DNA of 64,000 bases. Source: an uncultured Gammaproteobacteria bacterium. GTDB taxonomy: Bacteria; Patescibacteriota; Patescibacteriia; UBA1558; GWA2-36-10. The translations under genes and the position numbers were made by a program. Below are positions 2,982 to 64,000 of the stretch, in pieces. Under the pieces are notes generated by a model that ran no database searches, was not told the origin of the DNA, and was given only the letters and a program-made list of their open reading frames with translations. How positions within the stretch are numbered: the first letter of the stretch is position 1; each line of letters starts with the position of its first letter. The stretch covers positions 3,193 through 67,192 of the forward strand of contig CAZWIT010000003.1 of NCBI GenBank assembly GCA_964633905.1, read 5' to 3'.

Positions 2982-4171
2982 TCAGAGGGAATGGTGCCGC
3001 CAAAACCAGTATCAGCCATTTTTTGACGTAAAAGTTTTTCGCCTCTGATCAATTTAGCAGTACAAGGGGCAACGGGGCGGTTGACATCCTGATTAAGGCA
3101 ATTGTAAGACTTATCTAAACAAGATCCGCCGTTACAACTGCAAGTATCAATGCCCTCAACAGTATTAATATAACATACATCTACCGCCTTACCATCCATA
3201 TGCTTTGGAATAGGTGGCTCACAGCTAGGAGCAGCTGCTTCATTACATTCTCCATTACAACTAGCTGTACAATTCTTATAGCAATTGTATAACTGTTCTT
3301 GTTTGGCATAGCTACGAAAAGCGCTTTTGATAATTATACTTTCTCCTTGTCCTAATTGTATTCCCTGTAGAGCCTGCCAAGCTTTAGGCACTAAACGTGC
3401 ATCCGAAGTGGAAACACGATCAATAATAATATTACCTCCAATTACTACCATATTTACTAAACCATTACCATCTTCTAGAGCACAACGTTTACTACTAGTA
3501 GCACTTGGTAAAGGCACGCAAGAACCACTAGCTGGTTGGTCAGCACTTTCAGCAATTGCTAACCAAGTGCAATAATTGTCTTCACAAATTTCTTTACTAG
3601 TAAAAGCACTACAATCTTCAGCAATAGAAACATCTTTGACTTGCAAAGCCTTAAAATTTACTAAATTAGAAGAAATTTGAGCTAAGAGCAAATAACTGCC
3701 AAATAAAAAAGCTAAACCAATCAAGGTGGTACTAACCGTTTCTTTGGCCATAGCGATCTTTGAAGCATTACCAGCTGCCATCAACCATTGCCAAGCGCCA
3801 TAAACCAACATAAACATTGCAAAAGCGCCGGCAATGACACCAGCATAGTTATAAATCGCTCTTATGTATTTAGCCAAAGACTCACCATTAATTCTATACT
3901 CAATATGTTTTTCGCCTGTTTTTTTATTTTCTACTTCTACTTTTTCAGTAAAAATTTTATCCATGCCTGGGATAAAAATATTTGGCCAAAAATATAAAGA
4001 ATCTTTTTGCTTGGCCTGCAGTTCTTCGGCTGTCGGCGTGTCTACTAGCGTACTGCCAGGCTCAGCTGGAACAAATCCTTGCGCTAAAACTTTTGGTAAA
4101 GCAAAAATAAAATTAATACCTAATATTATTAGCACTAAAAAACTAAGTATTATTTTTTTAATAAAAAACAT
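2951..4171 (-). CDS. Membrane protein with a VirB2/TrbC-like helical hairpin and a divergent Cys-rich C-terminal ectodomain (paralog B)
   Basis: Same core helical hairpin as 1905-2981, with a perfectly identical 147-bp nt stretch. The N-terminal region and the Cys-rich C-terminus differ. Confidence 0.45.
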   Translation of the reverse strand: MFFIKKIILSFLVLIILGINFIFALPKVLAQGFVPAEPGSTLVDTPTAEELQAKQKDSLYFWPNIFIPGMDKIFTEKVEVENKKTGEKHIEYRINGESLAKYIRAIYNYAGVIAGAFAMFMLVYGAWQWLMAAGNASKIAMAKETVSTTLIGLAFLFGSYLLLAQISSNLVNFKALQVKDVSIAEDCSAFTSKEICEDNYCTWLAIAESADQPASGSCVPLPSATSSKRCALEDGNGLVNMVVIGGNIIIDRVSTSDARLVPKAWQALQGIQLGQGESIIIKSAFRSYAKQEQLYNCYKNCTASCNGECNEAAAPSCEPPIPKHMDGKAVDVCYINTVEGIDTCSCNGGSCLDKSYNCLNQDVNRPVAPCTAKLIRGEKLLRQKMADTGFGGTIPSEWWHFYYTGP

Positions 4172-11009: not shown

Positions 11010-11141
11010 ACCCTGTTAAATAGTCCCTGCTTAAGCTGGGACTCCCGCTAATAAAACTTTGTGAGTTTGTTTTAAATTTAGGGTAATAATTTTATTAATT
11101 TTTTATGATGAAAGCAATAAGATGGCGGGATTTAACAGGGT
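11010..11141. repeat. MITE-like element, copy 1, bounded by 12-bp perfect inverted termini ACCCTGTTAAAT / ATTTAACAGGGT
   Basis: Termini read directly. Internal GC hairpins AGTCCCTGCTTAAGCTGGGACT and CCCGC...GCGGG. Three more copies with identical termini are elsewhere in the window. Confidence 0.6.
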
Positions 11142-28883: not shown

Positions 28884-30065
28884 TTATAACAACATATATA
28901 ATAAGGTCATAGCACCAGCAATAACAAAAGTCATTTTAAAAGCTAAAATATCTTGACCAATATAAGATAACAAAATATAAATCAAGGCAATGGCGAGTAA
29001 CTTACCAATTACTAAACTCATCTCAAAAAAAACAACATTACTCATAATATGATGATGCTGGTCTGCTTTTAGGACTTTAGCACGTTCATAAGTAATAGTA
29101 GTTAAAGGCACTGCAATAGTATTTTTACCTAATCTAGAAAAAGTGTCTAAAAAGAAGATACCAGTAGCATTTACTACAAAAATCCTAATAAACCAAGCTA
29201 AAGAATAAAAAACACTGCCTAAAGCCAGCACCCGATGTTTAATACCTTTGTCTGATAATTTACCAATATAGAGAGTAATAATAGTGGTAACTAACGTAGC
29301 CAAAGCAACAATTAAGCCAGTATCTAAAACATTGCTAATAACAATAGAAATAAAAATTGGCCAAATTACTAAAACTACAAATTCCTCACCAAAACCTAGA
29401 TAAGCAATTAGTGATTTACGATTTTGTTTGCTAAACAAGTTTTTGAAAACATTAGTATAAGAAAAATCCCCTGCTTCAAAATTTTCTTTAGTTACTAAAG
29501 TAGGAATATTAGAAGCAAAAAATATCAAGGAAACAACTACAAATAAAGTTGCATAACCTAAAGTAGAAATAATCAAGCCCGCTAAAGCAGGTCCAACAAT
29601 ATAAACCAAAGAAGTGACAACAGTCATGGCACTAACTTCTCTGCCCTGCTCATTTTCATTAGAAAATCTAGCAAAGTTAGCATGATAAGCTGGCCAGTAG
29701 AAAGTCTTTTGCAGAGTATAAATCAAAGCAACTATATAAAATAGCGATGAGTAGTCTTTGATTAAATACAAGCCAATATAGAAAAAGGCATATAAACAAG
29801 TGCCTAATAAAAGACTAACTTCATAGCCATATTTTTTAGAAAATTTAGCGCCCAGTGGCATCATTAACACATAACCAATATAAGTCACTAAATAAAAAAG
29901 TAGTATCTTTTGTAGAGAATAACCAATTTGATATAAATAAATTGGCTCCCAAAACATCACCATAGCTAAAGCAAAATTAACCATAGTGGTAGAAATATAA
30001 AGCTCTTTTATTTGACGTTTGACTGATTGAGGTAGCCACGTCCTAAATAAGCCTAAATGCAACAT
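28884..30065 (-). CDS. MFS-type transporter
   Basis: 393 aa with 12 predicted TM helices and an MFS-like topology. Confidence 0.55.
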   Translation of the reverse strand: MLHLGLFRTWLPQSVKRQIKELYISTTMVNFALAMVMFWEPIYLYQIGYSLQKILLFYLVTYIGYVLMMPLGAKFSKKYGYEVSLLLGTCLYAFFYIGLYLIKDYSSLFYIVALIYTLQKTFYWPAYHANFARFSNENEQGREVSAMTVVTSLVYIVGPALAGLIISTLGYATLFVVVSLIFFASNIPTLVTKENFEAGDFSYTNVFKNLFSKQNRKSLIAYLGFGEEFVVLVIWPIFISIVISNVLDTGLIVALATLVTTIITLYIGKLSDKGIKHRVLALGSVFYSLAWFIRIFVVNATGIFFLDTFSRLGKNTIAVPLTTITYERAKVLKADQHHHIMSNVVFFEMSLVIGKLLAIALIYILLSYIGQDILAFKMTFVIAGAMTLLYMLL

Positions 30066-30069
30066 TTTT

Positions 30070-30204
30070 ACCCTGTTAAATAAATTTAATTAATAAAAAG
30101 TAAAAAAATATTTTATCAAATATACTTTAATTATAACACATAAACCTACACTTATTAAATTTAATTTTTTAAAGTCATACTTTAAAAAATTATTTAACAG
30201 GGTA
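30070..30204. repeat. MITE-like element, copy 2 (AT-rich interior), with the same 12-bp inverted termini
   Basis: ACCCTGTTAAAT at 30070-30081 and ATTTAACAGGGT at 30193-30204. The left terminus lies 5 bp from the MFS start codon. Confidence 0.6.
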
Positions 30205-45708: not shown

Positions 45709-45840
45709 ACCCTGTTAAATCCCATACTAGATTTATTAAGAAATAAATAAATTAAAATAAACACAAATATTACTTTTAAAATAAAGGAAAGTCTTTCTTA
45801 TGGGAAGCTAAACGCCAAGCGTTTAGCTATTTAACAGGGT
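45709..45840. repeat. MITE-like element, copy 3, in the divergent promoter region between the DHH paralog and infB
   Basis: ACCCTGTTAAAT at 45709-45720 and ATTTAACAGGGT at 45829-45840. An internal perfect hairpin AGCTAAACGCCAAGCGTTTAGCT abuts the right terminus. Confidence 0.6.
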
Positions 45841-62639: not shown

Positions 62640-62996
62640 TTATTCTTTAGTATCAACTTCCTCAATCGGATCTTTATCGATTTGAGCTTCTAGAATCAAA
62701 ACTTCTTCTAGATCTTTTCTTTCTTTTTTAGCAAACTTCAAACCCAAAGTTTTGATTAATTTACTAAAACGTTTTTCATCTTCTCTTTCTAAATAACGTA
62801 AGAGATGGTGACGTAAAGATACTTTAGCCAGTAAACCCCTGCGAGAAGAAAAATCCTTTTTATTCTCTTTTAAATGCTTGGTCAAATCCTTGATTTCTTC
62901 GGTTAGAATGGCTACCTGCACTTCTGGAGAACCAGTGTCATTTTTATGAGTTTTGAATTTCTCAATAATCCTCTGTTTCTTTTTTTTATCTAACAT
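62640..62996 (-). CDS. rpsO: 30S ribosomal protein S15 with a ~30-aa acidic C-terminal extension
   Basis: DTGSPEVQVAILTEEI...SRRGLLAKVSLRHHLLRYL is the S15 core. The rpsO-pnp order is conserved. Confidence 0.8.
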   Translation of the reverse strand: MLDKKKKQRIIEKFKTHKNDTGSPEVQVAILTEEIKDLTKHLKENKKDFSSRRGLLAKVSLRHHLLRYLEREDEKRFSKLIKTLGLKFAKKERKDLEEVLILEAQIDKDPIEEVDTKE

Positions 62997-63148
62997 TTTA
63001 CTTTTCCTTTCCCCTAAATCCTAGCCTAGGCTCTAAGTTAGTTAGTCAGCCTAAACCAAGTGTTTGGGATAAAAATAATTATTAAAGTAATAACAGACTA
63101 ACATTTTTAAAGAAAAAAGTCAATTCTAGAGCTTAAAATACTATAATA

Positions 63149-63177
63149 TTGACAAAATAAGGTAAATATGATATAAT
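63149..63177 (+). promoter_or_regulatory. Perfect consensus sigma70 promoter TTGACA-17-TATAAT driving the high-GC minigene
   Basis: TTGACA at 63149-63154, a 17-bp spacer, TATAAT at 63172-63177. A 7-bp hairpin TTAGGAG-CTCT-CTCCTAA lies at 63192-63209. Confidence 0.6.
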
Positions 63178-63241
63178 ATAAATATTAACTATTAGGAGCT
63201 CTCTCCTAATAAATTATTCACCCCGTCGAAAGCGAGTTGTC

Positions 63242-63415
63242 ATGTTCGATCGTTTCGCCAACAACTACGGCTACGGCGCGCAGCACGACATGGAGCGGGG
63301 AATGCTGGACTCCTGGTCCAGGATGCCCTTGCCCATCTTGATCGCCGTGACTGTCGCCTTCGTCGCTGGCCTGGGCCTGTGGCTCTGCCACGAGCTCCAT
63401 CTCTTCGGGATGTGA
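63242..63415 (+). CDS. Small (57 aa) hydrophobic peptide encoded in a high-GC patch; a foreign-looking minigene
   Basis: MFDRFANNYGYGAQHDMERGMLDSWSRMPLPILIAVTVAFVAGLGLWLCHELHLFGM. One predicted TM helix. Codons are GC3-rich (GCC, GTC, CTG, GGC), unlike the rest of the window. Flanked by a consensus promoter and an intrinsic terminator. The RBS is weak. Confidence 0.4.
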   Translation: MFDRFANNYGYGAQHDMERGMLDSWSRMPLPILIAVTVAFVAGLGLWLCHELHLFGM

Positions 63416-63447
63416 GCGTCTCCGGTCGTAAAACTCCACTGCGGTGG

Positions 63448-63476
63448 AGAGAGAGCCTGACCAGCTCTCTCTTTTT
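63448..63476 (+). terminator. Intrinsic terminator of the minigene
   Basis: Stem GAGAGAGC/GCTCTCTC with a CTGACCA loop, followed by TTTTTT. Confidence 0.75.
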
Positions 63477-63655
63477 TATTTAAAAACACTACTCCTACAG
63501 TCATCCTGAATTTATTTCCCACGGCCCGCCAAAGGCGGAGCCTCGCAGAATGCGGGGCGAGCAGGATCTCCAAATATAAATATAGCTATTTGGAGATGCC
63601 GAATCCGCCAGCCGGCGGATCGGCATGACGGTAGTGTCGTTTTATGATAAAATTA

Positions 63656-63710
63656 ACCCTGTTAAATAGTCCCGCCTTGCGGGACTGCCGCGAGCGGCAT
63701 TTAACAGGGT
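63656..63710. repeat. MITE-like element, copy 4 (minimal 55-bp form), directly abutting the recombinase start codon
   Basis: ACCCTGTTAAAT at 63656-63667 and ATTTAACAGGGT at 63699-63710. Internal hairpins AGTCCCGCCTTGCGGGACT and GCCGCGAGCGGC. Confidence 0.6.
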
Positions 63711-63716
63711 AAAAAC

Positions 63717-64000
63717 ATGAATAAACTTGATTTAAAAAAATACCAAGCTTATCTAAAGCTCCGTGGCCTAAAAAGCATTACTATTAAAAACTACCTTTGG
63801 CATGTTTCTAAATTTTTGCTGTGGCAACAAAATCAAGACCCTAAAAAAATTAATATTAGCAAATACCAAAGCCTGCAACTCAAAACTAAAAAAAATATTG
63901 GCAGTTTAAACTTGCATTTTACTATTTTAAATGATTATTTAAAATTTATTAAAAATAAAAACCAATTTAAACTACTATCCAAACCCTTTATTCCTAAAAA
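63717..64000 (+). CDS. Tyrosine recombinase/integrase (XerC/XerD-like), N-terminal SAM-like core-binding domain; 3' partial, runs off the window
   Basis: MNKLDLKKYQAYLKLRGLKSITIKNYLWHVSKFLLWQQ... matches the phage-integrase N-terminal SAM-like domain pattern (YxxYLxxxGxSxxTIxxYxxxLxxF). Confidence 0.55.
   Translation, partial: MNKLDLKKYQAYLKLRGLKSITIKNYLWHVSKFLLWQQNQDPKKINISKYQSLQLKTKKNIGSLNLHFTILNDYLKFIKNKNQFKLLSKPFIPK

Follow-up and report, generated by a model that had tools for sequence, protein, structure and literature searches.

We analyzed positions 63480-64000 of a 64,000-nt window of DNA, where a series of palindromes runs up to the start of a tyrosine recombinase gene. The window is the whole stretch that was analyzed and supplies the coordinates given below; relatives are given as loci labeled L (e.g., L001, L005, and L006). 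The initial annotation took this arrangement for a possible island boundary, with the palindromes as recombination sites. On the evidence of gene order and protein comparison, the recombinase is a vertically inherited chromosomal gene that occupies a fixed position in one Patescibacteria lineage and is not an island integrase. What had been flagged is mostly ordinary, namely a conserved chromosomal Xer-like gene with its promoter. We consider it likely that the arrangement as a whole comprises this resident gene, its promoter, hairpin clutter, and one widespread palindromic element that acts as the leader. The DNA from the terminator of an upstream minigene to the recombinase ATG would then be a regulatory spacer of the recombinase, overlaid with small palindromic insertions. 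The features of the region are as follows.

63149..63177, + strand: consensus sigma-70 promoter of the minigene, TTGACA-17-TATAAT with a TG, score 12/12
63242..63415, + strand: 57-aa minigene open reading frame (ORF); codon usage is high-GC, and the product has a hydrophobic helix at its C terminus
63446..63484, + strand: intrinsic terminator of the minigene, an 11-pair stem (63446-63474) and then a T-run, with the T-run/ATTTAAAA junction
63503..63567: older palindrome ATCCTGAA-TTTAT-TTCAGGAT, interrupted by a GC-rich insertion of 44 nt (63519-63562)
63523-63542: palindrome 1, GGCCCGCCAAAGGCGGAGCC, an imperfect hairpin (CCGCC/GGCGG plus GGC/GCC, one bulged A)
63540-63558: second hairpin, GCCTCGC-AGAAT-GCGGGGC, overlapping palindrome 1
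63566-63576 and 63587-63597: palindrome 2, ATCTCCAAATA / TATTTGGAGAT, an 11-bp inverted repeat, 100% complementary, with a 10-nt spacer
63598-63624: palindrome 3, GCCGAATCCGCCAGCCGGCGGATCGGC
63634..63653, + strand: conserved block GTGTCGTTTTATGATAAAAT, the putative recombinase promoter (TG at 63645-63646, TAAAAT at 63648-63653)
63656..63710, no strand: 55-bp palindromic element ("TIR copy 4"; TIR, terminal inverted repeat), in which the 12-bp arms ACCCTGTTAAAT (63656-63667) and ATTTAACAGGGT (63699-63710), 31 nt apart, form a stem closing two flush hairpins
63717..64000, + strand: first 94 codons of the XerA-like tyrosine recombinase, with its ATG at 63717; the ORF runs past the window end and the gene end is expected near 64505

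The chromosomal setting carries the main finding. The exact S15 protein encoded at 62640-62996 was located on the Logan contig L001, which matches the last 8 kb of the window at 99.75% identity and extends 5.7 kb beyond its end; the full recombinase gene lies at L001:5173-5961 and encodes 262 aa. The gene and rpsO(-pnp) are divergent neighbors in the window, L005, L006, L008, L009, L010, L131, and L132, with synteny at protein identities of 82% (L005), 57% (L008), 55% (L006/L007), 44% (L009), and 43% (L010, Nomurabacteria). This position holds down to about 38-40% protein identity and in at least eight lineages, and rpsO is followed by pnp and then by the same further genes wherever a relative's contig permits the view. 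Downstream of the recombinase, L001 encodes a cytochrome b5, a small ORF, a patatin, SdpI with an ArsR regulator, RlmH, and ProRS, and a second contig (L004) continues with an M23 peptidase, a sigma factor, and CorA. These are housekeeping or common genes with a host-like GC content of 0.32-0.34, and patatin, SdpI/ArsR, and ProRS are collinear downstream of the recombinase in L006 as well. In L009 and L010 the gap between rpsO and the recombinase gene (xer) is just ~165-177 bp, a short spacer that looks like the ancestral empty state.

An island with the recombinase at its end, cargo past nt 64000, and the palindromes as arm-type or core sites was a natural first reading, since a tyrosine recombinase does lie beside repeats and a gene of foreign composition. 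It is extremely unlikely, because the DNA in which the cargo was expected holds ordinary chromosomal genes and the recombinase stays in place between conserved neighbors from lineage to lineage. Moreover, there is no tRNA or tmRNA gene nearby, within 19 kb, and the second att-like repeat that had been proposed did not appear, 62900-64000 containing only short AT-rich chance pairs and no att-like direct repeats. None of the palindromes is conserved family-wide as an arm-type or core site would be, and two of them are insertions missing from L005, the 82% relative. The claim of foreign DNA next to the recombinase survives on a smaller scale, for the ~0.5-kb spacer upstream and not for the region downstream. 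The "site-specific integrase" label that automated annotation gives such genes is, for this reason, a poor sign of mobile islands in Patescibacteria genomes.

The assignment of the ORF to XerC/D-like tyrosine recombinases was borne out by profile and structure searches. The protein matches the Pfam Phage_integrase profile (PF00589; E = 3.5e-14, residues 96-260), and its closest Protein Data Bank entry is Pyrococcus abyssi XerA (4A8E; E = 2.5e-21), which has the same fold. XerA is also the best NCBIfam model, matched over the full length with 107.6 bits against a cutoff of 220; the XerD and XerC models give 66 (cutoff 330) and 63.5 (cutoff 335), so that all three fall below their equivalog cutoffs. 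The integron-integrase model TIGR02249 reaches 34.4 bits (cutoff 265) and covers the N-terminal half only (residues 7-153). Protein searches returned homologs of the recombinase only from Patescibacteria.

The catalytic R-K-H-R-H-Y set anticipated past nt 64000 is there in part. In the family alignment R119, R226, and Y258 are invariant, whereas the lysine and both histidines of the canonical R-K-H-R-H/W-Y signature are gone across the subfamily. The GKGxK(D/E)R beta-hairpin that bears the catalytic lysine is deleted throughout, HxxR has become QxxR (the first histidine being a glutamine), and the late histidine is either a leucine (NLNLSS) or shifted (ALHF). The canonical outgroups aligned with the family (P0025 and P0026) retain all six catalytic residues. 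A FINxDRSxK insertion is conserved in, and specific to, the subfamily; it could mark a relocated catalytic lysine or a loss of activity. By its residues, the subfamily would represent a new catalytic solution or else a DNA-binding protein that has been domesticated.

The three palindromes, the 12-bp-armed inverted repeat, the recombinase start, and the minigene terminator reported initially are all present, with small coordinate shifts only. The stretch is far more structured than random expectation. Searching the window for the 12-mer arm with up to one mismatch gave eight matches, all exact and forming four inverted pairs, where 2.16 were expected; none of 100 shuffles got to eight. Likewise, the single-strand fold of 63496-63716 has a free energy of -59.2 kcal/mol, against -30.2 +/- 3.4 for shuffles (z = -8.4). 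Rfam 15 at the gathering score identified only five tRNAs in the whole window, and at E <= 10 only chance-level matches in 63000-64000, the best being a microRNA model at E = 0.086. Two Logan contigs (sample SRR13355620) terminate at 63519-63544, with an overlap of ~25 nt within hairpin 1, and are elsewhere identical to the window. Population heterogeneity was considered and set aside, since the overlap and the identity argue for a palindrome-induced break; the contig ends are probably a break of the assembly graph and not biological variation.

Comparison with relatives separates the recombinase promoter from the palindromes around it. A promoter scan reads the block at 63634-63653 as ATGACG-17-TAAAAT with a TG, that is, an extended -10 (TGnTAAAAT). 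Nearly the same block occurs in the window, L005, L006, L008, L130, and L009, six lineages whose proteins are 40-57% identical; its core, TATG(A/C)TAAAAT, also occurs in L131 and L132, L010 keeps TGCTAAAAT only, and L133 reads ATGGTAAAAT. While the conservation is observed directly, that the block is the recombinase promoter is what we infer from it as the simplest explanation. The 55-bp element begins exactly 2 nt past the -10 hexamer, and its AGGGT (63706-63710) lies 6 nt ahead of the ATG. It folds into a perfect flush three-way junction (-33.6 kcal/mol) with the hairpins AGTCCCGC-CTT-GCGGGACT and GCCGC-GA-GCGGC. Homologous copies occupy the same 2-nt position in L130 and in L006, where the copy is oppositely oriented; both hairpins recur in these copies, and hairpin 1 shows compensatory changes among the window, L130, and L006 copies (AGTCCCGC, AGCCCCGC, and AGTTCCGC). 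The same xer 5' site is empty in 7 of the 10 relatives (L005, L008, L009, L010, and L131-L133).

Because the element is lodged 2 nt after the -10 box, transcription would be expected to begin within the left arm, ~7 nt past the -10. RNA that starts within this arm keeps the 5'-terminal junction when folded and leaves AGGGU unpaired. Positions and folding together suggest that the mRNA would carry a three-way junction at its 5' end, with the AGGGT of the right arm free to serve as the ribosome-binding site; in its place before the ATG, this motif reads as a Shine-Dalgarno sequence.

The hairpins at 63503-63624 are in part shared with L005, the closest relative, and in part strain-specific. In L005 the ATCCTGAA-TTTAT-TTCAGGAT palindrome is unbroken (3773-3797), whereas in the window it holds the 44-nt insertion, which forms two hairpins (63523-63542 and 63540-63558), the first of which is palindrome 1. 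The 11-bp repeat at 63566..63597 is degraded in L005, with 8 of 11 arm positions pairing around an 8-nt spacer, and was not found in L006, L008, L009, or L010. Palindrome 3 is a hairpin, GCCGAA..TTCGGC, whose loop holds the GC-rich palindrome TCCGCC-AGCC-GGCGGA; its L005 counterpart is the simple hairpin GCCGAA-ACAAG-TTCGGC, and the window is ~10 nt longer. Thus, relative to L005, strain-specific GC-rich hairpins of 44 nt and ~10 nt sit in the loops of older hairpins. Palindromes 1-3 are not conserved as a recombination site would be and have the appearance of accumulated hairpin insertions. Because the stack lies between a perfect consensus promoter (63149-63177) and the weak recombinase promoter, its stem-loops most likely would help to insulate the recombinase gene from read-through from the very strong upstream promoter. 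The split palindrome was also considered as a degenerate member of the 12-mer family, but the resemblance is limited to ATCCTG/CAGGAT and we do not claim it. A literature search by sequence, with 11-mers, returned only primers or chance matches.

The 55-bp element belongs to a large family. Its three sister copies in the window have exact arms, unrelated interiors, and the same architecture as copy 4.

11010..11141: sister copy 1, 108-nt interior, located after the efp terminator and before a 446-aa ORF begins; interior z = -3.5, folding as a flush three-way junction
30070..30203: sister copy 2, 110-nt interior; the AAAA-ATG of a minus-strand major facilitator superfamily (MFS) transporter gene comes right after the outer end
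45709..45840: sister copy 3, 108-nt interior, between two divergent genes, an NrnA-like gene and infB; interior z = -4.7

Copies 2 (30063-30081) and 4 (63699-63719) both stop just short of a start codon, reading GGGTAAAAATG at the MFS transporter and GGGTAAAAACATG at the recombinase, with the AGGGT of the arm in a Shine-Dalgarno-like position in each. When one genome per species was scanned for ACCCTGTTAAAT...ATTTAACAGGGT, the exact arm pair, with a gap of 53-113 nt (loci L016-L129), at least 114 stretches from many phyla were identified. Besides many Patescibacteria classes, the matches listed include Scalindua, Desulfobacteraceae, Thermodesulfobacteriota, Cloacimonadota, Bacteroidetes, KSB1, Chlamydiae, and uncultured Gammaproteobacteria. 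From the fetched loci we extracted 139 copies, and sizes range over 46-183 bp; the 64-kb window has four copies. Minimal forms measure 46-65 bp, as does copy 4; in long forms one hairpin is swapped for a long stem or a nested second element, and both nested and tandem copies occur. The 12-bp arm is invariant, or ~15 bp if the flanking TTY/RAA is counted, and some lineages have outward extensions of their own (AAAATTCAGC in Sungiibacteriota, GCAACCTTY in Scalindua). In L024 (1800-2400), from a Bacteroidetes metagenome-assembled genome, tandem copies are joined as ATTTAACAGGGT-AA-ACCCTGTTAAAT, and one copy is broken by an unrelated inverted-repeat element, AACCCAAATCCGT...ACGGATTTGGGTT.

These elements conserve their structure. 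Compared with shuffles, the interiors fold better (median z = -2.3), and 59% form junctions that are flush with the arms. Among nine 84-bp copies from one Sungiibacteriota genome (from L030, L042, L053, L061, L063, L103, and L112), 9 of 18 pairs in the long helix are changed on both sides (24 cells) and none on one side. There are no wobble intermediates, which would fit pairing or arm copying at the DNA level better than selection on an RNA; one arm may have served as template for the other, or as the standard for its correction. Most copies (109/138) have no flanking direct repeat, the rest having repeats of 1-3 bp, and comparison of filled with empty sites (window/L005 and L130/L008) revealed no target duplication.

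The elements also have a preferred relation to genes. Of 138 copies, 80 have polar ends, TTC|arm...arm|AAA, and the ATG of a long ORF follows the AAA end by 2-10 nt in 26 of these 80 oriented copies, compared with 5 of 80 at the other end. In 17 copies the ATG stands exactly 2 nt past the arm, reading ...CAGGGTAAATG, and the genes that follow are assorted housekeeping genes. By position, then, the family often works like a supplier of the leader and ribosome-binding site of the following gene. The full promoter-leader architecture is not general, because only 11 of 79 oriented copies have a -10-like hexamer before the arm; we rejected it as a universal feature. At the orthologous copies in Nomurabacteria (L052, L078, L120, and L055), which lie in a ribosomal-protein operon between rpsQ and rplN, the interiors contain TTGCAA/TTGACG-N15-17-TATAAT-like hexamers and may act as an internal promoter.

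No enzyme could be tied to the family. Near the 114 loci, among the matches listed, no transposase, recombinase, or RAYT (REP-associated tyrosine transposase; REP, repetitive extragenic palindromic) gene recurs, which, in a family that spans many phyla, speaks against reading the "TIR" as part of an island boundary. Co-occurrence with the recombinase family was examined and dropped: of the four close relatives that a metagenome scan recovered, only L130 has the element. Almost no members of the family turned up in 2.9 million viral contigs, its consensus gives only chance-level BLAST matches in plasmid and phage collections, and we found no entry in Rfam 15 and no description in the literature searched by sequence and by Patescibacteria-repeat keywords. 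[quoted passage not shown] On these comparisons, the family behaves like a DNA-level, structure-conserving repeat of MITE or REPIN type to which no enzyme is linked. The identity of the arms across phyla is unusual, extending from Patescibacteria to Scalindua, Desulfobacteraceae, Cloacimonadota, and Chlamydiae. If real, the family would point to a broadly shared structure-specific mobilizing or binding activity and to a portable module of 5' leader and ribosome-binding site.

Upstream of the hairpins, the foreign composition ascribed to the minigene was confirmed. Its GC contents at the three codon positions (GC1/2/3) are 0.57/0.40/0.88, and GC3 in host genes is 0.27-0.32. The GC-rich block was tried as a tmRNA or other known structured RNA, with empty results from ARAGORN and Rfam; it is coding, as the GC3 of 0.88 in the + frame shows. 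Searches with the 57-aa ORF gave low-complexity matches only and no real homologs. The slot that the minigene occupies between rpsO and xer was delimited in four genomes.

Window, 63149-63484: ORF of 57 aa
L005, 3112-3740: ORF of 161 aa
L006, 9250-9920: ORF of 156 aa
L008, 180-545: ORF of 29 aa

These ORFs have no mutual similarity; homology among them was sought by comparison and rejected, the L006 ORF being an ORFan. All are small membrane or secreted ORFans, each before the conserved T-run junction. GC3 is 0.88, 0.91, and 0.71 for the three larger ones and 0.57 for the 29-aa one, in hosts with ~0.3. The window and L005 share the consensus promoter TTGACAAAAT..TATGATATAAT, and L006 and L008 keep the -35 part with a diverged -10. 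After the cassette, the T-run plus (G/A)TTTAAAA is kept in L005 and L008, and it is also found at the cassette junctions in L211.

The same units occur away from the recombinase. GC-rich cassettes in L005, L011-L015, and L211 have the promoter motif TTGACAAAAT..TATGATATAA in front of them, and this motif appears nowhere else in 1.4 Mb of loci. A homolog of the L005 ORF, 49% identical and equally GC-rich, lies in L011 (4880-5520), an unrelated locus in a genome of 45% GC; its promoter matches at 27 of 33 positions, and no recombinase adjoins it. A second homolog (51%) is the third of three tandem promoter-ORF-terminator mini-cassettes (L211, 1-1270), which are joined by TTTTTTATTT-N4-TTGACA. 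Because the promoter and the L005-ORF homologs recur at an unrelated locus and in a tandem array, the cassettes are taken to be mobile as whole transcription units. Inverted-repeat or att-like cassette ends were looked for and rejected, as the promoter TTGACAAAA and the reverse complement TTAAACAAAA are too AT-rich and too weakly similar.

Other small DNAs have reached this spacer as well. A ~100-bp noncoding stretch upstream of the promoter is ~95% identical between L008 (571-700) and L130 (1-85), whose recombinases are 40% identical; it contains a GTCATTGCGAG...CTCGCAATGAC hairpin and GATAAACCAGTTCAGC...CTCCATCTACATTTTT, and seems to be another recently spread small element with the same landing place. 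In L132 (~1890-2040), the -35 region of the rpsO promoter is the site of a ~140-bp AT-rich insert that has the 10-bp direct repeat GTCAACCCAG on either side. Given the differing slot ORFs, the L008/L130 stretch, and the L132 insert, the rpsO-xer spacer is a place where small mobile DNA has landed repeatedly, high-GC3 ORFan cassettes with their own promoter among it. Such mini-cassettes in AT-rich genomes represent an unexplained path by which genes enter ultra-small, host-dependent bacteria.

Several explanations would give the recombinase a direct part in this clutter. In an xer/dif-type module, the site of the recombinase would lie just upstream of its gene, as in xerS/difSL or some xerA/dif pairs, and serve for recombination or autoregulatory binding; the candidate sites are the 11-bp repeat (63566-63597), the 55-bp element, and the palindromic promoter core TTTTAT-G-ATAAAA. 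The 11-bp arms have the usual half-site length, and the promoter block outlasts the protein, with ~20 nt nearly identical at 43-55% protein identity. We nevertheless find such a module unlikely. The 11-bp repeat is confined to the window and, degraded, to L005, and its spacer is 10 nt and not 6-8; the 55-bp element is missing in most relatives, occurs four times in 64 kb where dif is single-copy, and is found in phyla in which the searches run gave no member of the recombinase family. No upstream palindrome save the promoter block is conserved across relatives, and the extended -10 promoter fully explains that block. In addition, cumulative GC skew is monotonic over the window with no switch, and so the window holds no terminus. 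An integron-like platform, in which the resident recombinase swaps promoter-bearing cassettes beside its own gene and the palindromes are attC-like folded-DNA substrates, would account for a different high-GC3 ORF in each relative between a shared promoter and a shared T-run junction, for the promoter and homologous ORFs at L011 and in the L211 array, and for elements that conserve only their ends and their structure, with GTTAAAT/ATTTAAC fitting GTTRRRY/RYYYAAC. We regard it as rather improbable: the polarity of these boxes is opposite to attC, the elements do not flank the cassettes and lie among housekeeping genes, including ribosomal-protein operons, instead of cassette arrays, the L011 cassette has no neighboring recombinase, and the recombinase itself falls far below the integron-integrase cutoff and is missing the catalytic lysine and both histidines.

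It is very unlikely that the four repeat pairs are invertons, that is, promoter-bearing segments flipped by the recombinase as master invertase, with the short copy autoregulatory. In three intergenic regions that lie upstream of genes, identical 12-bp inverted repeats do enclose ~108-110 bp, promoter-like hexamers can be read by eye in the AT-rich interiors, one copy abuts the recombinase gene, and the orthologous L006 copy is oppositely oriented. However, of the 201 pairs with similar interiors, 27 also share recognizable flanks, and in none of these 27 is the interior clearly flipped (two weak-scoring exceptions involve a nested variant); moreover, inversion needs neither a flush three-way junction nor covariation restricted to Watson-Crick pairs. 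DNA stiffness bars protein-mediated inversion of the 31-bp interior, which is too short, and the family again extends to phyla where no recombinase-family member was recovered. The sole flip, L006 versus the window, is between lineages at 55% protein identity, and for that reason looks like a rare repeat-mediated inversion or a re-insertion. One could also imagine a capture platform of a new type in Patescibacteria, in which a resident XerA-like recombinase with a rebuilt active site (two arginines and the tyrosine kept, lysine and histidines lost, a new DRSxK loop) sits beside a slot for exchanged cassettes that form tandem arrays elsewhere, and the three-way-junction palindromes, whose arms have TGTTAAAT in common with the XerD half-site of dif, are folded-DNA substrates of this recombinase or of another universal structure-specific enzyme, attC-like with reversed polarity; this combination is improbable.

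A resident Xer-like gene behind its promoter, hairpin clutter, and a widespread leader element remains the likelier account, and several points weigh against it. That a hot spot for small insertions adjoins a recombinase gene hints at a causal link. At its end the 12-mer has TGTTAAAT, as does the XerD arm of E. coli dif, a sequence that was not found in the literature searched. The roles in leader, ribosome binding, and insulation come from modeled positions and folds, and the -10-like hexamer 2 nt upstream is present in just 11/79 oriented family members. The missing lysine and histidines make a housekeeping role for the recombinase less certain. Finally, frequent genetic linkage to the dif site is known for single-recombinase Xer systems (PMC5357621), so that a palindrome here could be a lineage-specific site.

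Among known systems, the recombinase most resembles the single-recombinase Xer systems (archaeal XerA, 4A8E; XerS/difSL; XerH/difH), as a ~260-aa, two-domain protein encoded by a chromosomal gene in fixed position. XerA is its best match by profile and by solved structure, over the full length. It differs from XerA in its subthreshold score (107.6 versus 220), the deleted lysine hairpin, QxxR, and the FINxDRSxK insertion, and from these systems in general in that no dif-like site is found among the upstream palindromes of the window and its relatives.

The palindromic elements recall three kinds of repeat. Correia elements (CREE) of Neisseria are MITEs that carry promoters and form RNase III hairpins when transcribed; like them, the elements are short (~55-137 bp) intergenic inverted repeats just 5' of genes, with two size classes, outward end signals, and long transcribed stems. 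Correia elements are confined to Neisseria and have shared interiors, 26-bp TIRs, and a duplicated TA target, whereas the family described here has arms identical across phyla, interiors that are unrelated or nested, and no target duplication. With REP/REPIN sequences it shares palindromic extragenic repeats maintained as structures, compensatory stem changes, and singlet, tandem, and nested arrangements. REP families are species-specific, bear a GTAG or CGTC tag, and are expected with a REP-flanked RAYT gene; in contrast, the 12-bp arm is common to many phyla, with no RAYT near the 114 loci among the matches listed. The resemblance to integron attC sites and cassettes lies in size range, end-only conservation, a structure-specific character, 7-mers that fit GTTRRRY/RYYYAAC, and a slot for exchangeable cassettes. 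An attC site bounds each cassette and reads 5'-RYYYAAC...GTTRRRY-3'; on both strands the elements have 5'-GTTAAAT...ATTTAAC-3' instead, and they do not bound cassettes. Unlike integron cassettes, the cassettes here have their own promoter and terminator, and the recombinase is not IntI.

In our analysis the minigene behaves like a moron-type cassette. Phage morons are autonomous promoter-gene-terminator units of deviant composition, and the minigene and its counterparts are likewise self-contained, each combining a small ORF for a membrane or secreted product with a consensus promoter, a 5' hairpin, and an intrinsic terminator, at a composition far from that of the host. In contrast to morons, they reside in Patescibacteria chromosomes and not in prophages, one promoter is used across unrelated ORFs, and the units can form tandem arrays.

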